DNA from: Hemiscyllium ocellatum
Lineage: Eukaryota
NCBI RefSeq assembly: GCF_020745735.1
Contig: NC_083413.1
Span: 97,870,409 to 97,934,408 of the forward strand
Direction of reading: 5' to 3'
DNA length: 64,000 bases
Part shown: positions 9,431 through 64,000 of the stretch, piece by piece
Position numbering within the stretch: the stretch's first letter is position 1
Layout of the letters: every line of letters starts with the position of its first letter
Program-made: the position numbers and the translations under genes
Notes under the pieces: generated by a model
Seen by the model: the letters and a program-made list of their open reading frames with translations, nothing else
Database searches by the model: none
Told to the model about the DNA's origin: nothing

Positions 9431-10430
9431 TAGTTGCCTTGTTTTCAGATATATGGATATAACTCCCCCACCATTCTGTTTTGTGAATATCAGAACAACA
9501 TCGGCCTATTGCTGACGACGTCCAGGAGCTGGAGGCAGAGGGCAGGGTCTGACACCAGCTGATTGAGAGAACAAGAAAGAGACAGCACTGAGAATTCATC
9601 CTGTTGTTGGAAATGCTGTTCCAATCCACACTAAATAATCCCATCTTCGGTCGTGTGTCACAATACAAACAAAATAACTGGGTGCTCCTGAACAAATCAT
9701 GGTCAGTTTTAAATCTTAAAAATGGACTTGACGCCCTGTTAATATGAAGAGACTGTTTCTGTTGCAGGTGTTTCATTGAATCTTCCCACACAGTGAGAGG
9801 CCATTTGGCCCATTGTCTTCCTGCTTGCTCTTTAAATGAACCATTTCATTCCATTGCTGCTCATTTCCTGCAGTCGCACATATTTCCTGTTTTAAATATA
9901 TATCCACTTCCAATTTTAAAATGAATGATGGCAGAATATTGTCAGTTTCTTCCATCACTCTTTCAGGCAATCAGAATCACTCCCTGTGGCCACATTCTCC
10001 CAATTCCCTCTCAGTTATTTCTGAGCCTTTTTTTTACTTGTGTTGGTGGTTGTATCGGTGACTTCCTAACCTGGGTACGGCCCTCCTCTGGAATTTTGGG
10101 AAGGACTTCACCGACTGACACTAACAACAGACCAACTACTGCAGCCGAAGACTGAAAAGCCACCTTAATGGTTACTATGCTAGTTAGATACACAAGACCA
10201 AGACAGGGTCATCCAACTCAGGAGGTAAATAGTGGGCTCAACAAGAAGAGGGAAAGGAGAGAGATAGAACAGAGAAAGAATGGGAAAGGGGACAGGGAGA
10301 TAGAGAGAGAGAGCAGAGATTAGGAGAGAAAGGTGAAGGGGGATCAGAGAGAGAAAAACACAGGGGACGAGGACAGAACTTTGGGAGGGGAGAGAGGGGG
10401 TAAGGGGGGTAACGTAGTGCTGAGGCAGAC

Positions 10431-12570
10431 ATCAGCCAGGGAGGGGAGATTACAAGGTGGGTAGGGATCAGTCAGGGAGGAGTGATTGCAGTGTTGGGTA
10501 GGGATCAGTCAGAGAGGGGGAGATTGCAGTGTTGGGTAGGGATCAGTCAGGGAGGGGGAATTGCAGTGTTGGGTAGGGATCAGTCAGGGAGGGGAGATTG
10601 CAGTGTTGGGTAGGGATCAGTCAAGGAGGGTGGGATTGCAGTGTTGGGTAGGGATCAGTCAGGGAGGGGGAATTGCAGTGTGGGTAGGGATCAGTCAGAG
10701 AGGGGAATTACAATGTTGGGTAGGGATCAGTCAGGGAGGGTGGGATTGCAGTGTTGGGTAGGGATCAGTCAGGGAGGGTGGGATTGCAGTGTTGGGTAGG
10801 GATCAGTCAGGGAGGGGGAATTGCAGTCTTGGGTAGGGATCAGTCAGAGAGGGGGGGATTGCAGTGTTGGGTAGGGATCAGTCAGGGAGTGGGAATTACA
10901 ATGTTGGGTAGGGATCAGTCAGGGAGGGTGGGATTGCAGTGTTGGGTAAGGATCAGTCAGGGAGGATGGGATTGCAGTGTTGGGTAGGGATCAGTCAGAG
11001 GGGGGGGATTGCAGTGTTGGGTAGGGATCAGTCAGGGAGGGTGGGATTGCAGTGTTGGGTAAGGATCAGTCAGGGAGGATGGGATTGCAGTGTTGGGTAG
11101 GGATCAGTCAGAGAGGGGGGGATGCAGTGTTGGGTAGGGATCAGTCAGGGAGGGGGAATTACAATGTTGGGTAGGGATCAGTCAGGGAGGGGGGGATTGC
11201 AGTGTTGGGTAGGGATCAGTCAGAGGGGGGGGATTGCAGTGTTGGGTAGGGATCAGACACGGACGGGTGATTGCAGTGTTGGGTAGGGATCAGTCAGGGA
11301 TGGGTGATTGCAGTGTTGGGCAGGGATCAGTCAGGGAGGGGTGATTGCAGTGTTGGGTAGGGATCAGTCAGGGAGGGGGGATTGCAGTGTTGGGTAGGGA
11401 TCAGTCAGGGAGGGGGGATTCGCAGTGTTGGGTAGGGATCAGTCAGGGAGGGGTGATTGCAGTGTTGGGTAGGGATCAGTCAGGGAGGGGGGGGATTGCA
11501 GCGTTGGGTAGGGATCAGTCAGGGAGGGGTGATTGCAGTGTTGGGCAGGGATCAGTCAGAGAGGGGTGATTGCAGTGTTGGGGAGGGATCAGTCGGGGGG
11601 GATTGCAGTGTTGGGCAGGGATCAGTCAGGGGGGGATTGCAGTGTTGGGCAGGGATCAGTCAGGGAGGGGGGGATTGCAGTGTTGGGTTGGGATCAGTGA
11701 GGGAGGGGATTGCAGTGTTGGGTAGGGATCAGTCAGGGAGGGGTGATTGCAGTGTTGGGTAGGGATCAGTTAGGGAGGGGTGATTGCAGTGTTGGGCAGG
11801 GATCAGTCAGGGAGGGGTGATTCGCAGTGTTGGGTAGGGATCAGTCAGGGAGGGGTGATTGCAGTGTTGGGCAGGGATCAGTCGGGGGGGGATTGCAGTG
11901 TTGGGCAGCGATCAGTCAGGGAGGGGAGATTGCAGTGTTGGGTAGGGATCAGTCAGGGAGGGGGGGATTGCAGTGTTGGGCAGGGATCAGTCAGGGATGG
12001 GTGATTGCAGTGTTGGGCAGGAATCAGTCAGGGAGGGGGATTCGCAGTGTTGGGTAGGGATCAGTCAGGGAGGGGGGATTCGCAGTGTTGGGTCGGGATC
12101 AGTCAGGGCGGGGTGATTGCAGTGTTGGGTAGGGATCAGTCAGGGAGGGGTGATTTGCAGTGTTGGGTAGGGATCAGTCAGGGAGGGGTGATTGCAGTGT
12201 TGGGCAGGGATCAGTCAGGGAGGGGTGATTGCAGTGTTGGGTAGGGATCAGTCAGGGAGGGGTGATTGCAGTGTTGGGCAGGGATCAGTCAGGAGGGGTG
12301 ATTCGCAGTGTTGGGTAGGGATCAGTCAGGGAGGGGTGATTGCAGTGTTGGGCAGGGATCAGTCAGGGAGGGGTGATTGCAGTGTTGGGGAGGGATCAGT
12401 CGGGGGGATTGCAGTGTTGGGCAGGGATCAGTCAGGGGGGGCATTGCAGTGTTGGGCAGGGATCAGTCAGGGAGGGGGATTGCAGTGTTGAGTTGGGATC
12501 AGTGAGGGAGGGGGATTGCAGTGTTGGGTAGGGATCAGTTAGGGAGGGGATGATTGCAGTGTTGGGTCAG
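10431..12570 (+). repeat. G-rich minisatellite, ~37-bp unit, ~57 copies
   Basis: Unit GATTGCAGTGTTGGGTAGGGATCAGTCAGGGAGGGG(G); period 37 measured between TTGCAG at 10561 and 10598. Confidence 0.97.
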
Positions 12571-53874: not shown

Positions 53875-54590
53875 TGTGAAAGCTCAGCCACGTTACCTGG
53901 CTTTCTGTGAACTCCTGTCCAAGAACAGAGAACCACCACTTAATTAATACACTTCAACAGTACTGTTTTTATTCAAGACTATCAGTATATGAATATACTA
54001 ACAAGGCTTGGGAGAGAAAAGCCACTTAGACCACACTGGGTACTAAAGAGTGGATTCTCTCACCGTTGATAGGGAAAGTTGTTACATTTATACATAACTT
54101 CTCACGCAATACAGAGTCCAGTGTCATTAAGCTATCGCAAAGTATATTAATCAAAGTATACTTAATTGTAAGCTTACACATCAAAACATGCTCTAAATCT
54201 AACACACAGACACCAGCACCCATCTGGTTAAGATATTAACACTATCTTTAAAGTCAGACATTAACTCCCATTATTTTTCTAACTCTTCAAAGCAACAGTC
54301 AAATCTCAGAGATGCTCTTTAAATGTAAACATTCAAACCTCATTAATGTGTTACAGCTAGACCGTAAGGCACCAGTACTCCTCTGATGGCTGCCCTTTGA
54401 CCTAGTGCTGGTACTATGTCATTCTCAGATCTGTGGGATTGGACATGTTTACCCAGCCTGTGCAAGTTGCTGTATTAGCAATTTGTTCGCTCAGGATGCT
54501 GGGCAATATAGCCAATGTGCTTCAGCCATTTTAGTTAACATTCTAAGCTCCATTTTCTATATGGTCACTATATCTATTTCCAATTTATCA
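53875..54590 (-). repeat. ERV 3' LTR (716 bp)
   Basis: Minus strand starts TGATAAA and ends TTTCACA; TATAAA at 54092-54087; AATAAA at 53973-53968; 6 substitutions versus the other LTR over 497 bp. Confidence 0.95.
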
Positions 54591-54621: not shown

Positions 54622-57003
54622 TCAGATATTAATACGTTGAAGTCGAGCAAACTCTTTTTCTGTTTCTACATCTAAATTGCCATCAGTCAAAAGTGTAGGT
54701 GTCAATCTTTCCTCCTGTGTCCATATCGGGCTTGTCTCCTTTTTACATCGGCGTCGTGCGGGACAAGTTTGACAACTTCTCTTAATAAGGGCCCAAGCGA
54801 TTCGAATACTAATACAAATGCCAAGAATGATGGCCAGAATGGAGAGAATGTCCAGCCCAATAGACTTTAGCCATCCCAACAGCTGACACAGTAGGTTCCA
54901 CCAGGCACAGGCCTCCTTTGAGTCTGTGTGGTCCCGATCATATGCTTTAGTGGCAACATCGTTAATTAGTGAAGTGTCATTATATACAGCCGAGCTCTCA
55001 TCCTCAATATAGGTACAACACACCGGGCCAATAACTGCACATGCTCCCCCTTGGCTTGCTAAGAGATAATCTAAAGCCATCCTATTCTGTAAGGTCATCA
55101 TTCGCAGGGCAGTCTGCTCGTGTTCCAAATGATCCAGGGCATCAGCAGTGGCCTTAGCTATTTCCTCAAGCTCGTGACTGAGATCACGAATCTGGTCCAG
55201 GGCTTGCATGACCCCATAATTGGGCAGAAGGGCGCCAAAGAATCTGCTCCAAAATGTCTGTTGGTGGAACAGATCTCTCCTGCCTCGAGCATGAGGTTTG
55301 TAATTTGAATTAAGATCATGCCACTTCTTCCATTCGCTGTTAACCTCTGGGGTTGAATTCAATAACCGGAATGCTGGGAGGTGATATATCAGCGCACAGG
55401 TGCCCTTAAAGTTAATAGGTAGGTATTCATAGGCTGTGTGATTGCATAACCAAAATGTCCCGTTAAGTGCAGGCGTAATACAGTGTTTAGCGTGGAAGAG
55501 GACAGCACCCATGCGGCTTGTAGGGGCGTCGGGACGAGTCTTTTCATTAACACAAAGGTCCCAATCGTCCTCCGGGAGGCCCCCAAAGGGGTCTGACCTG
55601 GTTTGATCATGAGATATTATTACCTGGCATCTACTGTCTTCTAAGTCTCCCATGGCATGTTTTCCTGTATCACTATGAAAGCACCATTTAAATTCTGGCA
55701 CCACCGCTACTACAAAACCTTTTGGTACCACTTGCCAGGTGTCATAGCAACGCCTGAGGTAACCATACTGGATCGGGTATTGGTCAGAAATGTCTCTATA
55801 GGGAATAATTTTTGGGGTTTGTTGGGTACGCCTGTAGGTAAGACTGCATAATTCATCCTGACCAGTAGGGGCCGCCATCATGAGGAATCCGGACCCTACC
55901 GAGTGTGGGCCTGGGACACATACTACTTTGGTATTCTTTCCTTCATCAGTCTGATTGTCAAGATGAGTTTTTACTGTTTCAAGGAAGCCAGTAAAGGTGT
56001 TGCCGGTAAGGCTCGTTGCTTCCGGTAAATTGCTTCTTTTCTTTCGGTGGGTCTTAAGAAAACGGTGCAGTGTGCGGACGAGATTTTTTAATTTTAAGTA
56101 ACTGGGAAAGTTGAACAAATAGTCTCTAGGGTCCGCTGCAGTATTATTCACAAAGGCATGGCAGCACGTGCGTGTATCATTTAAGTACGTATAGGTATCC
56201 TCGGATTTGGTGCCATTTCCTCGTAGGCATACATACATTACTTCCTGGCAGATGCCAGTGTTATGAATTGTTATATTACTGGGACATTCTGTCCTAGCAT
56301 CCAGAGTTGTAATATTATATCCAGGGCACCACTGTTGAAGTCCTGTTAGGTTTTGCAAATGCTGTACGCAATCCTGTGACCAGGCAATATTTTGGACAAC
56401 TATGCTGCTATAATTAGAAGTGGCCTTAGAGTAGTCAGGAAAACCGACCAAGGGACAAATTGTCTGGTTAAACCCACTGTTACCTGGGCCATGACGATCA
56501 CACGTGGCATTCACTCTGACCTGAACTATTCTTGTGGGGCCTGTGTTATTCAACATTTTGCTATTCTCCTGTTTCCATACCCACCAATCCCTGATGAGAT
56601 TGCAAGGGGTAGCTAGGGTCTGACTTGGTTCACTTATATTATTAGACTGGGTACCTATCACTCTGGACAGTGATAAACTCATTAGGGGGGTGCTAATAGT
56701 CATATTGTCACTCATAGTACTCACGAGATCCCTCGGGACTATTACTGTACCATTGGGGCCATCAGAAGCAATACGTGGTGCCATACTCACAAAACCTTTA
56801 GTCATTTTAGTAGTAACATCTGTAGAGTGTGAAGTCATCACGGGGGTGCCTGTTTTTATCCACGTCTCCGCGGTGGCTGCACTAGAGTTGCTTGTAGGCC
56901 CTTGGAGAGTAGGGGGTGCACCGCTGGTGGTGTTACTGGTCTGCATTGATGTCCCTGTCACTGTTAGGCAGAGGCCAAAGAGAAAGAGGGTAGGTTTCAT
57001 CAT
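54622..57003 (-). CDS. env: Retroviral envelope glycoprotein, open, 793 aa
   Basis: Signal peptide, Ser/Thr-rich region, RKKR (320-323), RGRR (573-576), fusion peptide, heptad, ISD LQNRMALDYLLA, CX6CC (655-663), TM helix and Cys-rich cytoplasmic tail. Confidence 0.96.
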   Translation of the reverse strand: MMKPTLFLFGLCLTVTGTSMQTSNTTSGAPPTLQGPTSNSSAATAETWIKTGTPVMTSHSTDVTTKMTKGFVSMAPRIASDGPNGTVIVPRDLVSTMSDNMTISTPLMSLSLSRVIGTQSNNISEPSQTLATPCNLIRDWWVWKQENSKMLNNTGPTRIVQVRVNATCDRHGPGNSGFNQTICPLVGFPDYSKATSNYSSIVVQNIAWSQDCVQHLQNLTGLQQWCPGYNITTLDARTECPSNITIHNTGICQEVMYVCLRGNGTKSEDTYTYLNDTRTCCHAFVNNTAADPRDYLFNFPSYLKLKNLVRTLHRFLKTHRKKRSNLPEATSLTGNTFTGFLETVKTHLDNQTDEGKNTKVVCVPGPHSVGSGFLMMAAPTGQDELCSLTYRRTQQTPKIIPYRDISDQYPIQYGYLRRCYDTWQVVPKGFVVAVVPEFKWCFHSDTGKHAMGDLEDSRCQVIISHDQTRSDPFGGLPEDDWDLCVNEKTRPDAPTSRMGAVLFHAKHCITPALNGTFWLCNHTAYEYLPINFKGTCALIYHLPAFRLLNSTPEVNSEWKKWHDLNSNYKPHARGRRDLFHQQTFWSRFFGALLPNYGVMQALDQIRDLSHELEEIAKATADALDHLEHEQTALRMMTLQNRMALDYLLASQGGACAVIGPVCCTYIEDESSAVYNDTSLINDVATKAYDRDHTDSKEACAWWNLLCQLLGWLKSIGLDILSILAIILGICISIRIAWALIKRSCQTCPARRRCKKETSPIWTQEERLTPTLLTDGNLDVETEKEFARLQRINI

Positions 57004-57038
57004 TTCACTTTTCTTCAGTCTTCCTTCCTTAGTGGCAC

Positions 57039-57062
57039 CTATGTCAAAGGAAGAGAAAATAC
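57039..57062 (-). promoter_or_regulatory. env splice acceptor
   Basis: Minus strand TATTTTCTCTTCCTTTGACATAG|GTGCC, between the pol stop and the env ATG (35 nt downstream). Confidence 0.75.
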
Positions 57063-57087
57063 ATACAGCAGTAGCTGCCCCTTATTC

Positions 57088-60000
57088 TCATTCCTCCCCA
57101 ATAAGCTTGCAATGGTGTAGGCTGATCCAGGCTTTACGACCCTCAACCTTAACAGCAGTAGGGGTGGTAAGGAGGACTTGGAAAGGGCCCTCCCACCGGG
57201 GTTCCAGGCCGTGCTTTCTGGCAAAGTTTTTGATCAATACAAAGGTGCCAGGTCGGATATTTGGGGGCAACGGCAAATCCGACCGCAAAGGCCTGGCAGC
57301 TTTAACCATCGCATGGTTCATGCGTAAGGCATCAGTTAAGGATAAAACATAGAAGATCATCCCATCTGACATCTGATGTATGTCAACAGGAGAATCAGAG
57401 AAGTCAGAGCTAAAGGGAGTGCGGAGGGGCCGCCCATACAAAATCTCGGCAGGGGAGAGACGGTGGGCTCCTGCCGGGGACACCCGGAGTTGAAACAAGG
57501 CAATGGGCAAATTTTGGAGCCACGAGAGAACATTGTCAGCTGACAGTTTGGCCAATTTAGATTTCAAGGTCTGATTAGCCCGTTCCACCACTCCCGCGCT
57601 CTGAGGGTGGTAAGCACAGTGGAACTGCTGCTTGATATTAAGAACTTTACAAAGTTCTTGACTAACAAAGGCCACAAAATGAGAGCCGTTATCGGAACTG
57701 AGCGTCCGCGGCACACCAAATCTAGGAATAATCTCCTTGAGTAAAGTCTTAACAACAGTGTCAGCCTTGTTATCGGCTGCAGGATAAGCCTCAATCCATT
57801 TACTAAAAACATCAACAATAACTAAAACATATTTACACTTGGCCGTTCTGGGTAGCTCAATGAAGTCCATTTGCAACGTATCGAAGGGGCCTTCAGGCAG
57901 CGGGGTTCTACCCTGTTCACAGGGGACCCCCTTGCCGGGGTTATGCTGCATGCATGTCAAGCATTTTTTAGTTTGTGCTCTAGCCAATTGCAGAACACTG
58001 GGATGCCACCAAGATTCCCAGACTAAATCTGCAGTTTGTCTAGCCCCACAGTGTGTTAAGTGATGGACAACATCAACCACCCAGACGGCTAAAACATTAG
58101 TCATACACACCTGGCCTGCTGGGGTTTTCCAAAGACCGTCAACGTCCTTGAAACATCCCAGATCAGTCCATTCATGAAGTACATTGTCAGGGGCGTCCCC
58201 CTGTAAAGCAACAATATCAGCGGTGGAGGGAGGCTGCTTGTCAGGAACTGAGGCCCTAATAGATTTCCTCTGAACCATCATTAAGGAGCCAGGGAGCTCC
58301 GTAGCCTGTTTAGCAATTTCATCTGCCTGTTTATTTCCCATAGAAACCGGAACTGTTCCGGCAGAGTGCGCGGAACATTTAATAATGGCCAATTCGCGAG
58401 GACTTTGAATGGCCTGTAACAAATGAATGACTTCCTCCCTGTGTACGATAGGGGTCCCCGACGAGGTGAGGAAACCTCGATTTTCCCATAGTGTCCCAAA
58501 ATCATGGGCAACCCCGAAGGCATACCTAGAGTCAGTATAAATATTAGCTGTAACTCCGGAGGCTAGCTCACATGCCCTAGTTAATGCAATTAATTCAGCT
58601 TTCTGAGCGGATACCGCAGGTATGAGGCGACACTGTTCCACGATCCTGCCCTCCGCATCCACTATACCATATCCAGCCACCCTGTCTCCATTCTTGTTTA
58701 CAGAGGAGCTACCATCCACGAACAAAGTGACATCGGGATGTGGGAGGGGGCGGTCAGTCAAGTCAAGTCTGGGCCTAGTGTCTAGCATGATTTTGTGGGC
58801 GCATTCGTGAACGGGGACAGGACTCTCAGCAGGAATATCAGACATAAACGTTGCCGGGTTAATACTTGCGTAATATTTGAAGGTCAACAAGGGGTTCCCT
58901 AAAAGGAAGATTTCATAGCGAGACTGGCGGGCAGATGTCAGGTGTTGCGTCTGCATTTGGCCCAACATAGAAACTACTGCATGAGGACTAAAAACAGTGA
59001 CCGGTTGTTGGAGCGTTGTGTTTGCTGCAGCCAACACCATCAAATACGTAGCAGCCAGTTGTTGAATACAATGAGGCTGACCACTAATCACAGAATCCAA
59101 CTTAGTAGAAAAATATGCCACCGGCCTACGGGTACCTCCATGGTCCTGCGTCAAAACCGCGACCGCGCAGCCCGAGGTAGTGGCCACAAAAAGCTGAAAA
59201 GGCCTATCGTAGAGGGGTCTCCCTAAAGCAGGAGCATTGATTAGCGCCTGCTTCAACTGGTTAAATGTCTCAAGTGCAACTTCGGATAGAGTGAAGGGCT
59301 GTCGCTCAGTGGTAAAGGGAGTGAGAACCTTTACTAAGGGGGCAATGTTAGGAATCCATTGTCTGCAGAAGTTAACTAATCCCAAAAACCGTCTCATCTG
59401 CTTAGCCGTGGTAGGGGCCGGAGTATTGACAATCGGACCAATTCTATCCGGGGCCAACCTACGCTCATGCGCTGAAATTTCTACCCCCAGGAATTTAATT
59501 TTACGTTGGCCGATGACAACCTTGTCATAATTAGCTACATAACCTAACTCGGCCAGCTTGTTGAGGAGATGCTTAGTGTCCTTTTCATTCGACAGGGCAT
59601 CAGGGCTGGCAAGTAAAAGGTCATCCACGTATTGTACCAGGGTGGATCGACAAGGCAAATGGATCTGGTCTAATTGCCTTTGGAGGATCTGAGAAAATAT
59701 TGTGGGGGAATCACAGAATCCCTGTGGTAGTCTCGTCCATGTATATTGCTTGCCCAAAAAGGTAAAGGCAAACAAATGTTGGCTGTCAGGGGCTAGGGGA
59801 ATAGCAAAATAGGCATTTTGTAGGTCTATCAAGGAGAACACACAGGCCTCTGGAGGGATTGCCGCAAGTATGGTGGCAGGATTAGGGACGATAGGGTGCA
59901 AGGGCGCCACGATTTTGTTAATTTCATGGAGATCCTGAAGTAAGCGATACTCGCCAGGTTTACCTGGTTTAGCTACGGGAAGGATAGGGGTATTTGCTTG

Positions 60001-60483
60001 TGATTGACACTCGATCAGAACTCCCTGAGCCAGTAGGTGATCAATCAGGCCACGTAGAGGGGCCACAGCTTGACTCTTGATAGGATACTGCTTAACACTG
60101 GGGATCCGTGCTCCTGGCCTTAACATGACACTGACAGGGGCAACCCCCTTCGCCAACCCCACGCAGTACTTGTCGGTGGCCCAGACCGCAGGGTCAATCT
60201 CGACCTGGCTGTAACCACCTTCATGCTGCCGTAGCGTGGATAATACTGGTTCAGGATGGTCAAGGTAGACGATAGAAAGGCCGTCTCTTAAGTCCTGATA
60301 CCCCATTACATTCGGATCTGACAAGGCTACAGCCTGTGCTACCATGGGTCCTAAGTCCTTTGCTACATATCCCTTGTGAACTAAGACAGTTTGATGTGGG
60401 GCAATACCGGGCTCTTGGTCCCACAGCTCTGGTGGCACCCAAACGTACCAAGCCGTACCCTGTTTCCCATTAACTTTAGCCAA
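57088..60483 (-). CDS. pol: pol: C-terminal half of 2H-like domain, RT, RNase H, integrase (1131 open codons)
   Basis: LPQGFCDSP and YVDD (RT); FVDGSS, AELIA, YTDS (RNase H); HHCC, D-D-E (MDF, SDNG, VERAN) and WEGPF (IN). The frame is preceded by in-frame stops, so it has no normal start. Confidence 0.95.
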   Translation of the reverse strand: MAKVNGKQGTAWYVWVPPELWDQEPGIAPHQTVLVHKGYVAKDLGPMVAQAVALSDPNVMGYQDLRDGLSIVYLDHPEPVLSTLRQHEGGYSQVEIDPAVWATDKYCVGLAKGVAPVSVMLRPGARIPSVKQYPIKSQAVAPLRGLIDHLLAQGVLIECQSQANTPILPVAKPGKPGEYRLLQDLHEINKIVAPLHPIVPNPATILAAIPPEACVFSLIDLQNAYFAIPLAPDSQHLFAFTFLGKQYTWTRLPQGFCDSPTIFSQILQRQLDQIHLPCRSTLVQYVDDLLLASPDALSNEKDTKHLLNKLAELGYVANYDKVVIGQRKIKFLGVEISAHERRLAPDRIGPIVNTPAPTTAKQMRRFLGLVNFCRQWIPNIAPLVKVLTPFTTERQPFTLSEVALETFNQLKQALINAPALGRPLYDRPFQLFVATTSGCAVAVLTQDHGGTRRPVAYFSTKLDSVISGQPHCIQQLAATYLMVLAAANTTLQQPVTVFSPHAVVSMLGQMQTQHLTSARQSRYEIFLLGNPLLTFKYYASINPATFMSDIPAESPVPVHECAHKIMLDTRPRLDLTDRPLPHPDVTLFVDGSSSVNKNGDRVAGYGIVDAEGRIVEQCRLIPAVSAQKAELIALTRACELASGVTANIYTDSRYAFGVAHDFGTLWENRGFLTSSGTPIVHREEVIHLLQAIQSPRELAIIKCSAHSAGTVPVSMGNKQADEIAKQATELPGSLMMVQRKSIRASVPDKQPPSTADIVALQGDAPDNVLHEWTDLGCFKDVDGLWKTPAGQVCMTNVLAVWVVDVVHHLTHCGARQTADLVWESWWHPSVLQLARAQTKKCLTCMQHNPGKGVPCEQGRTPLPEGPFDTLQMDFIELPRTAKCKYVLVIVDVFSKWIEAYPAADNKADTVVKTLLKEIIPRFGVPRTLSSDNGSHFVAFVSQELCKVLNIKQQFHCAYHPQSAGVVERANQTLKSKLAKLSADNVLSWLQNLPIALFQLRVSPAGAHRLSPAEILYGRPLRTPFSSDFSDSPVDIHQMSDGMIFYVLSLTDALRMNHAMVKAARPLRSDLPLPPNIRPGTFVLIKNFARKHGLEPRWEGPFQVLLTTPTAVKVEGRKAWISLHHCKLIGEE

Positions 60484-61020
60484 TCATGTAAATATATACT
60501 GATTGCCTAGCAAGGATTCAAACTTTTCCTCCTTTTTCTAGTCAACTCCTGACTTATCGTAACAGAGCGTTACATGAGGAGGGTATCGAAAAGGGGTCTG
60601 GGTGTCACTGTCAGAGTCAGGGAAAAGTGCCCAAAAGCGTGCTGGAATGCGGACGGAGTACTGGCCTTTCTGTGTCAAGCGGATCTCTTCTGGGGTGCAC
60701 TTGATGATCACGCCAAGACCACCAAGAATATCTCGTCCTAGGATGTTGATACCAATGTGGGGGTTAATTACAAATTCATGCTCCCATTCGTCATTTTCCC
60801 AGCTAACTTTCAATGGTTTAGTAATTTGATAAGGCACGAACTTGCCCTCAAACCCCAATAAACGTTGAATCTTGTTACCACAAGGATAGTGGGTCCCTGC
60901 TAGTGAAGATGCGCATGCTCCTGTGTCAACCAAAAAGCGTTCAGGGGTACTTTCAATTAATAGGGTCACAATGGGCTCTGGAATGGCGTTGTGAGAAAAG
61001 ACAGGCAGCATCTCATCATA
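60484..61020 (-). pseudogene. pro: Aspartic protease plus N-terminal half of 2H-phosphoesterase-like domain, two in-frame stops
   Basis: FLVDTGA and ILGRD; then PPHVTL; TAG at 60540-60538 and TGA at 60486-60484, same frame as gag and pol. Confidence 0.9.
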
Positions 61021-62967
61021 TCACTGTTGTGGGGGCGGTGGGGGTGGTAGTATATTACTAAACGGATTTTGGCCGCCATAGCCACCTCTGGGGGTGCCTT
61101 GAGCACCCCGGCCCCTTCCTCCTCTGCTCCCTCGACCTCGTGGCTGTTCAGGGCAATCTTGTTTCCAATGGCTAGGATTTCCACAGTTAAAACAACCCTT
61201 CCCTTTAAAGTTATTCGTGGCCCGAAATGTCTGGGGCTGACTGGGATAACCCGAATTCCAGAGATTGGGAGTCCACGGCTGGCCACGCCAGTCAGGGGGA
61301 CCTAATGAGTAAGGACCACCCCTAGCTGGACCATTTGGGTGCTGCATCGCGTGAAACTCGCCCTTTTGGTTTTGCCAGCCTGGGACATAAAAATCCGGTT
61401 CCAGCTGATAGCCTCTATTGTCAGACTGCAGCTGGGGACCGGGTAATCTCCACAGCCCTTGCTGCTGGGTCTGCTGGGGAGGGGTGGGAGGTTGCCGCAA
61501 GGGGGCCATGGTATTTTGATCACTTTCCCGTACAACAAATTCAGATTTAATAGGTTTTTCGGCCTTAGGACCGTCACCCTCACCCCATAATGCTTTAATT
61601 GCCCTAGCTGTATCACCCTGTGAGGAATTGATCCAATTTAAGTTGTTAGTTTTCCATCTATCTTGTGTAGGTTTAGGCAAAGTATTCATCAAGAGACTAT
61701 TATACTGTTGTGAGACCGCCCCCGCTCCCAAAGGGAAAAGAGGGTCCCCAGAATATGTGCCATACGTTTCATTAAACCTCTGTAGGTATTCCTCAGCACC
61801 CTCCCCCTTTTTTGGTTTTAGATCAATGATTTTTGCGAAGTAAACCGGTTTTCTGAGGACCTGCCGCATTGCTTCTTTAATTTCCTGCTCCTGTTGTTGT
61901 TGGTTCGGGTGTTGTGCTGTAAAAGCAGTCCAACTGTTGGCACCAGGGGGCATATCTAATATTTCTAAAAATTTTGTCCACTTCAAGCCAATAAACACAA
62001 CCCTCAAAAAATTCCAGATATCTTCTCCCACTGCCCCGTAAGCCTGCCAAATGCTTTCAACTGATTCACACTATTTTTGTGGATCCTTATCTTTGTCAGG
62101 GAGATTCATAGTCAGTGCCAAAATTTCCTGCGGTTTCCATGGCGTAAAAATTTCTAGGGTAGGAGGGTGACGAACCGCAGCGACAGGAGGGACAGCATTC
62201 GGCTGGGCGGGGACTCTTACCCGTCCCGCTTGAGGGTTAGGAACAGTACGCATAGGGAACATGTGACCTGAGGGTTCCTCTATCTCTGAACTGTCATCGT
62301 CAGCCTCCTCTGTCCAAGGGTAGGGCAATTGCTGTTCGGGTTCACACTGTGGTGGAGGCCGATATCCTTTTTTACCTGTGCTTGGGGTAAAACTCCTTTC
62401 ACTACGTGCCTCCTGGGGTGCTGTACCCGATGGAGGGGGTTGGGGAGGAGATTCCACATTCGTAGAACTAATTCCCTTATCCTCCCATCCTGCACCCAGC
62501 CTCAGGTCTGACAATGCCGTCTCCACCGCTTGGTTGGCCAACCGTTTGTTCTTATTAATATTTTCATCAAAATTTGCACATGCAACCTTGAGCTCATGGA
62601 GGGTCAAAGGAAGCCCATCCTTAGTGACACTTAACCCCCTTTTTGTAGCATTATGTAACCAACTGTTGTAAACCTTCTGCTCGTGTTGTTGTTTAGCTTC
62701 CTCTTTCTTTCTAAAGCATGCATCTCTTAGTTTAGCCATAATTTTCTTACCCTTCTTTCCCCCTGTTCCCTCTTTCCATACTAACTCCGTAGCTCTTTTT
62801 ACAATCTCCAATTTCCACGTACCCCCTGCAGGCCATTCATCAGGTCCCAATTTTTCTGTTAGCCATCCTGACAATTTCCTGAGTGACTGTGCATCCTCAG
62901 GATCTTCTGCGCAGACTGTTACAATTAATGATCCCGAATCCTCACATTTATCCATAAACTGTCCCAT
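61021..62967 (-). pseudogene. gag: gag (648 codons) with one premature in-frame TAG at codon 299
   Basis: MGQ myristoylation start; MHR-like KKGEGAEEYLQRF; single CX2CX4HX4C knuckle CFNCGNPSHWKQDC; frame continues across the TAG at 62073-62071 (DPQK*CESVESIWQAYGAVGEDIW). Confidence 0.93.
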
Positions 62968-63202
62968 AATATTCCCTAAACTTTCCCTAACCTTTTGTGA
63001 GTGTTGCGTTTATTAGATCCTGCTCAAGGGACTTTAAACCCTCTCACACATACGTACCTCGGTGCTTTTATGAGGACTCTAACCCCATGGGACTTTAAAC
63101 CCGTACGTATCTAAACAACTACTTGTGAGCGGTGCTTTTATGAGATCCTGCTCAAGGGACTTTAAACCCACTCACACATACGTACGTATCTAACTATTCT
63201 TA

Positions 63203-63482: not shown

Positions 63483-63500
63483 ATCCCACCGCTGCCACCA
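63483..63500 (-). promoter_or_regulatory. Primer binding site, tRNA-Leu (AAG/TAG)
   Basis: TGGTGGCAGCGGTGGGAT is complementary to the 18 3'-terminal nt of vertebrate tRNA-Leu (...ATCCCACCGCTGCCACCA), 3 nt from the LTR end. Confidence 0.9.
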
Positions 63501-63503
63501 AAA

Positions 63504-64000
63504 TGTGAAAGCTCAGCCACGTTACCTGGCTTTCTGTGAACGCCTGTCCAAGAACAGAGAACCACCACTTAATTAATGCACTTCAACAGTACTGTTTTTA
63601 TTCAAGACTATCAGTATATGAATATACTAACAAGGCTTGGGAGAGAAAAGCCACTTAGACCACACTGGGTAATAAAGAGTGGATTCTCTCACCGTTGATA
63701 GGGAAAGTTGTAACATTTATACATAACTTCTCACGCAATACAGAGTCCCGTGTCATTAAGCTATCGCAAAGTATATTAATCAAAGTATACTTAATTGTAA
63801 GCTTACACATCAAAACATGCTCTAAATCTAACACACAGACACCAGCACCCATCTGGTTAAGATATTAACACTATCTTTAAAGTCAGACATTGACTCCCAT
63901 TATTTTTCTAACTCTTCAAAGCAACAGTCAAATCTCAGAGATGCTCTTTAAATGTAAACATTCAAACCTCATTAATGTGTTACAGCTAGACCGTAAGGCA
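63504..64000 (-). repeat. ERV 5' LTR (partial, 497 bp in window)
   Basis: Colinear with 53875-54371 without indels. Confidence 0.95.

Follow-up and report, generated by a model that had tools for sequence, protein, structure and literature searches.

A conserved second furin motif and a probable tripartite Env in an endogenous retrovirus of Hemiscyllium ocellatum

The window analysed in this work, a stretch of 64,000 nucleotides of Hemiscyllium ocellatum DNA (contig NC_083413.1, positions 97,870,409 to 97,934,408 of the forward strand), contains a full-length provirus flanked by a 4-nt target duplication. Its env gene is an intact open reading frame of 793 amino acids (aa), which runs on the minus strand from the ATG at 57003 to the stop at 54622. 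The principal features of the provirus and of its Env protein are as follows:

53875–54590, minus strand: 3' LTR, 716 nt, 99.0% identical to the 5' LTR, with the duplication ATAG
54622–55275, minus strand: TM subunit, aa 577–793 (Pfam PF00429; syncytin and filovirus GP2 matches; hydropathy)
55276–55287, minus strand: SU/TM furin motif RGRR, aa 573–576, strict in 30 of 46 copies
55276–56034, minus strand: compact, complete gamma-type SU, aa 324–576, 9 Cys (110.7 bits against an SU-core profile)
56035–56046, minus strand: upstream furin motif RKKR, aa 320–323, followed by Ser, strict in 41 of 50 copies
56047–56103, minus strand: variable linker, aa 301–319, basic and amphipathic in the window copy, Pro-broken in subfamily B
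56104–56613, minus strand: Cys-rich glycosylated domain, aa 131–300, 10 Cys and 10 sequons (Cys conservation; dN/dS 0.29)
56614–56952, minus strand: mucin-like segment, aa 18–130, 35% Ser/Thr, 5 sequons, no Cys (composition; dN/dS 0.87)
56953–57003, minus strand: Env signal peptide, about aa 1–17 (N-terminal hydrophobic stretch; putative cleavage point)
57088–63009, minus strand: gag-pro-pol, with in-frame stops at 62071, 60538 and 60484
63504–64000, minus strand: 5' LTR, extending 219 nt beyond the window end (locus L071)

The pro-pol region is in frame with gag, and a stop at 61021 falls at the gag/pro junction. Because the reverse transcriptase (RT) is MLV-like (484 bits for MLV, its best match, vs. 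183 bits for foamy virus) and the integrase C-terminus is of the MLV type (PF18697), we assign this provirus to clade I (gamma/epsilon-like), as a young endogenous retrovirus (ERV). A primer-binding site is located at 63486–63503 (minus strand), which we take to resemble the 3' end of tRNA-Leu, and the proviral leader contains a 63-nt direct repeat (92%; 62995–63057 and 63123–63185). Elsewhere in the window, a G-rich minisatellite array with a 37–38-nt unit occupies positions 10368–12483, and a stop-free frame of 242 codons (56624–57352, plus strand), antisense to the end of pol and the start of env, is probably a shadow frame. About 49 kb downstream lies a near-identical copy of the provirus including its flanks (L002, L072 and L073; 99.9–100%), which is a segmental or assembly duplicate and not a separate insertion. 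The region encoding the N-terminal module of Env gives 141 matches in the genome (matches, not copy numbers); together with the similarity of the two LTRs, this does not fit a co-opted, syncytin-like env at a single fixed locus with decayed LTRs.

A sequence-only reading of this locus had drawn attention to RKKR as a furin site additional to RGRR, and our analyses bear this out, since these are the only two strict RX[KR]R motifs in the protein. The accompanying description of a Ser/Thr-rich, mucin-like stretch plus a Cys-rich domain was likewise correct in all of its counts, viz. 15 N-X-S/T sequons in aa 18–323 vs. 4 in aa 324–576. The entire Env has 20 sequons, and aa 131–323 account for 10 Cys and 10 of the sequons of the module. 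A total of 15 sequons was reached in none of 5000 shuffles (shuffle mean 5.4). The presence of a furin motif is by itself just modestly unusual: a strict motif appeared somewhere in aa 18–572 in 8.8% of 10000 shuffles and R[KR][KR]R in 0.9%, and hence the meaning of the motif rests on its conservation and position. The N-terminal module is devoid of any hydrophobic segment after the signal peptide. The TM subunit (E = 7e-14 and 51.9 bits against PF00429, cut-off 22.5) contains a heptad and immunosuppressive region, a CX6CC motif at 655–663, a membrane anchor near 711–740 and a tail, and the Cys of its CX6CC are kept in at least 27 of 29 subfamily-A copies and in 16 of 16 subfamily-B copies. 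The odd number of Cys (9) in the SU is compatible with a predicted SU–TM disulfide.

The region behind RKKR is a complete and compact SU, of the gamma type in a broad sense. It matches positions 4–210 of a profile built from 62 SU cores, and distant relatives align with the window Env only from aa 330–360 onward. A CXXC motif is absent from this SU, the homologous position holding one Cys (C362), so that the window Env counts as gamma-type only in a broad sense; the distance from C362 to the TM CX6CC is 294 aa, the median in relatives being 293. With aa 324–576 forming a complete SU, aa 18–323 constitute an extra module. A recognizable SU start is present in 66 of the 151 proteins that were examined: it lies at most 45 aa from the N-terminus, with no strict site, in 28 (some of which may be truncated gene calls), behind a strict site in 16 (two of them being the Hemiscyllium ERV family), and in 22 it follows a longer extension with no strict site close by.

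To follow the upstream site within the ERV family, 50 loci were examined, consisting of the 30 best of the 141 matches (including the window copy and its duplicate) and 20 hand-picked divergent loci; 31 of these belong to subfamily A and 16 to subfamily B (L031–L049), with L001, L040 and L050 left out of both. A strict upstream motif is present in 41 of the 50 loci, and a strict SU/TM motif in 30 of the 46 in which that site is covered. RKKR is kept in both subfamilies with a synonymous difference in the Arg codon at R323, and 6 of its 9 losses are changes of CGA to CAA or TGA (CpG-type transitions), the remainder being two point changes and a short deletion. In most subfamily-B copies the SU/TM site is just a minimal RXXR, with Gln at P2 in 13 of 16 (RGQR) and Lys in 3 of 16, and thus the upstream site is the better furin motif there. 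Four conserved codons in one family are, however, weak evidence alone.

Comparison of the two subfamilies also indicates how the different parts of Env evolve. Pooled pairwise dN/dS values between A and B, for which the pairs are not independent and no intervals are given, are 0.87 for the mucin, 0.29 for the Cys domain, 0.62 for the linker, 0.36 and 0.28 for the SU and 0.25 for the TM; the mucin evolves near-neutrally and the Cys domain is under purifying selection. Each Cys of this domain is kept in at least 29 of 31 subfamily-A and at least 14 of 16 subfamily-B copies, and an extra (11th) Cys is found at position 302 in 16 of 16 subfamily-B and 5 of 31 subfamily-A copies. The basic amphipathic helix that had been described ahead of RKKR is real in the window copy, where the hydrophobic moment of aa 302–319 ranks 6 of 673 18-mers and their charge is +5, but it is no family trait: an internal Pro interrupts it in all 16 subfamily-B copies and in 8 of the 31 copies of subfamily A. 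The idea of a helix, amphipathic or antimicrobial-like, that is conserved in the family is rejected for this reason.

The stronger evidence regarding the upstream site comes from other Envs. With the Hemiscyllium ERV family removed, 67 of 148 proteins have both anchors, and 37 of these contain at least 63 aa before the CXXC. A strict motif located 18–58 aa before the SU CXXC is found in 13 of these 37 extended relatives, where shuffling gave a mean of 0.57 and a maximum of 4 in 3000, a positional enrichment of more than 20-fold; the shuffle test ignores relatedness, although its rows represent groups of 50% identity and the site label has to change at least 5 times on well-supported branches of the tree. 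Among relatives with at least 110 aa before the CXXC, 5 of 17 carry the strict motif (0.31 expected), and windows inside the SU cores contain it in 4 of 240 cases. The spacing from site to CXXC is 37 aa in the window Env and 22–51 aa in the relatives, and 12 of 14 Envs with the upstream site also keep a strict SU/TM site. The check on conservation proposed by the earlier reading has thus come out in favor of RKKR, both among the genomic copies and among fish and reptile Envs that are only distantly related but have a site at the corresponding place.

The named hosts of two-site Envs include chimaera, stingray, salmonids, tuatara, rainbowfish, guppy, pipefish, damselfish, Aldrovandia and Dallia. 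The upstream site is retained in most or all members of five clusters, viz. 8 of 9 in a mostly salmonid cluster, 13 of 13 in pipefish, 3 of 3 in tuatara, 3 of 3 in a further cluster and 2 of 3 chimaera proteins. In a quick tree with many open forks, the site label is scattered, with 12 changes of which at least 5 are forced by well-supported branches, and the chimaera Env, which has the site, is sister to the Hemiscyllium ERV family (support 90). The predicted released parts in the relatives are 28–170 aa long with at most 7 sequons, and the 323-aa predicted leader of the window Env is the largest and most glycosylated seen. Because 13 of 37 distantly related extended Envs carry the motif when about 0.6 are expected, the putative two-site layout is a recurring design and not a one-off. 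Two of the clusters are candidates for co-opted or recently spread envs: the P0010 cluster (P0155–P0162), whose two-site Env shows at least 90% conservation among records from Salmo, Oncorhynchus and Salvelinus, and the P0093 cluster, with another that is conserved to this degree across Syngnathus species.

Taken together, these results suggest that the window Env is probably a gamma-type Env in a tripartite form, whose third subunit is unusually large. Its precursor consists, in order, of the signal peptide, the mucin, the Cys-rich domain, RKKR, a complete compact SU, RGRR and the TM. Furin, which in our judgment probably uses the RKKR site, would cut after R323 in the Golgi, yielding a heavily glycosylated third subunit of about 306 aa, and would also cut after R576. 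The 10 Cys of the module in the window copy could all pair internally, leaving no spare Cys for tying it to the SU, and by this even count the module would be free to leave; the SU, with its 9 Cys, would be linked through its spare Cys to the CX6CC of the TM. Cys302 of subfamily B could tether the module. We favor, at slightly less than even confidence, a function in which the module is an accessory glycoprotein that occupies a swappable N-terminal slot before a self-sufficient SU and is set free by furin. It would shield the SU and be released in soluble form, serving as shield or antibody decoy, and the SU–TM would carry out entry. Given cleavage, this shed shield or decoy is favored because of the fast-evolving mucin, the dense glycans and the self-sufficiency of the SU.

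The main rival accepts the cut at RKKR and holds the Cys domain to be an attachment or receptor-binding domain (RBD), either associated with the SU or acting in trans. That this domain is under TM-like purifying selection fits a specific role in binding better than it fits a passive decoy, and its location ahead of the CXXC core is where gammaretroviral RBDs sit according to the available text of PMC9967133. A spare Cys in subfamily B points in the same direction, as do the features of aa 128–323 in the ESM Atlas, which are nearest to the TLV_coat and Avian_gp85 clusters (score 0.92, 143 of 256 features shared), a nearness that is a lead only. On the other side, the SU behind the site is already of full length, like SUs that directly follow a signal peptide, and the module matches no solved RBD or Pfam family in sequence. 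A retained or trans-acting attachment domain is accordingly judged rather unlikely.

A less probable reading, which we regard as improbable, is that the site is unused: aa 18–576 would then form a single large SU whose N-terminal domain is rich in glycans, and RKKR would serve as a basic linker. The chance frequency of the strict motif in the shuffled ectodomain is consistent with this, and long uncut extensions are common: no strict site is found in the tested interval of 24 of the 37 extended relatives, nor in any of 16 decayed loci tested of the EGF-type Env family described below, which indicates that extensions also work uncut. It is opposed by the positional enrichment in relatives, by the optimal tetrabasic nature of the motif, followed by Ser and placed outside both folded domains, and by the retention of RKKR in both subfamilies while the flanking linker changes.

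The N-terminal slot in related Envs can carry domains of host type. A second, decayed Env family in the same genome (L051–L070; examples L065:1321-2463, plus strand, and L067:2012-2368, minus strand) has EGF domains, variable in number and accompanied by a Ser/Thr linker, ahead of a homologous SU, and these domains (E = 2e-8 and 8e-7, above cut-off) look like a captured host domain. In a cavefish Env (P0009), aa 38–121 resemble an Ig V-set domain ahead of the SU (E = 2e-4, below the Pfam cut-off), and the extension likewise lacks a furin site; the protein P0011 contains a long insertion between SU and TM that is Ig-like by eye and has no Pfam match. By such precedents the Cys domain could be a captured host protein domain, signaling or immune-modulating, that is released as a virokine. 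This is an outside chance, as a search of 5.8 billion proteins (word-based, by which distant homologues can be missed) retrieved no homologues beyond the Hemiscyllium ERV family, and the ESM Atlas, once Env families are excluded, contains nothing at or above 0.9. The only named homologues of the module are two Hemiscyllium ocellatum proteins, 80–86% identical over the matched part. It has no match in viral contigs, PDB sequences (best E = 0.41), the extensions of the chimaera (P0003) or P0083 Envs, or any other fetched protein (best E = 0.19), and nothing in Pfam beyond a weak circovirus ORF4 match (E = 0.046, 6 of 23 members) that we treat as chance.

A tandem SU, in which the module is a second, diverged SU gained by recombination and RKKR its old SU/TM site, is highly improbable and is rejected. 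In its favor are the ESM features shared with Env families and the resemblance, by eye, of aa 252–285 to the motif at the SU C-terminus. Against it, aa 128–323 score just 0.2 bits against the SU-core profile (157 of 500 shuffles score as high), hhalign gives a probability below 1% in six runs and likewise against the Env's own SU, and a tandem SU would not account for those other Envs in which a short leader carries the same site.

The proposal of a tripartite Env with an extra glycoprotein of about 300 aa before a compact SU is therefore supported in part, as the module does not align as an ordinary SU, the SU behind it is complete, and the site is both kept and recurring; the module itself may be a decoy, a cap or a captured protein. 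We further put forward, as a tentative and somewhat doubtful generalization, that fish, shark and reptile gamma-type Envs include a widespread tripartite group, in which cleavage at a furin site before the SU core would set free an N-terminal subunit that varies from Env to Env (a short pro-peptide, a folded domain or, as here, a 306-aa glycoprotein of mucin plus new fold). The slot would then work as an accessory cassette whose content can be exchanged, an orthoretroviral equivalent of the foamy leader or of nairovirus GP38, and the released protein would act on a receptor or immune target of its own.

The common view of orthoretroviral Envs is one of two subunits and a single furin cut, and ERV screens seek only the SU/TM site. 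A conserved second site implies that, for many non-mammalian Envs, annotation may be wrong as to the mature N-terminus, the number of subunits and the antigenic surface. It likewise implies that ERVs with many copies could be secreting an unrecognized glycoprotein into their hosts. The two-site Env would also offer a natural setting in which the idea of an RBD acting in trans can be tested directly, and it is a candidate for a new fold.

In the open-access literature searched, a two-site layout is not described for gamma-type Envs and a second furin site is described only for foamy viruses. The available text of PMC9967133 deals with one furin cut, 4–13 glycosylation sites (as compared with the 20 sequons of the window Env), N-terminal CXXC types and trans-acting RBDs; that of a chondrichthyan Env survey (bioRxiv 10.64898/2026.05.06.723177) mentions furin once, for the SU/TM site; and the available portions of PMC12690878, PMC8672886, PMC6682551, PMC6784293 and PMC8582398 contain no second site for gamma-type Envs. 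The closest known relatives are the gamma-type Envs with an N-terminal CXXC (syncytin-2 type; fish and amphibian ERVs), which, as far as the accessible sections of PMC9967133 and PMC8278194 describe them, share with the window Env the TM immunosuppressive region and CX6CC, a compact SU starting near the CXXC position and the SU/TM furin site. In the window Env, by contrast, the SU is preceded by a further glycosylated module of 306 aa and by a second furin motif, and a single Cys stands in place of the CXXC, a state shared with alpharetrovirus-type Envs (CXXC-less gamma-type Envs of alpharetroviruses are described in PMC9967133, section 3.4). The RBD-PRR-CXXC SU of MLV and FeLV likewise has, on the N-terminal side of its CXXC core, a folded domain and a linker of low complexity, and secreted RBDs of this type (the FeLV-T cofactor) can act in trans, helping FeLV-T to enter cells. 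However, a furin site between RBD and core is not described for these SUs in the portions of the sources available, and in the window Env the mucin precedes the domain and the core is of full syncytin-2-like length.

The foamy virus Env (LP/SU/TM) likewise has two furin-type sites and three subunits, and two cleavage sites are a distinguishing feature of it in the available text of PMC11468914, a second furin site being listed as a foamy feature in that of PMC8278194. The foamy leader is anchored in the membrane and remains part of the trimer, with a paramyxovirus-F-like fusogen (PMC11468914, in part), whereas the window module has no hydrophobic segment of this kind, the TM is gamma-type and the RT MLV-like; a foamy-type tripartite Env is ruled out by the lack of a membrane-anchored leader and of a foamy-type Pol or fusogen. 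A works-like analogy is provided by the CCHFV precursor (mucin-like domain plus GP38) and by the filovirus glycan cap and mucin, proteins unrelated to the window Env in which a glycosylated N-terminal region is split off by proprotein convertases. In CCHFV, furin cuts between the mucin and GP38, and the filovirus caps lie within GP1. The furin site of the CCHFV PreGn and its 38-kDa product are described in the available text of PMC6682551.
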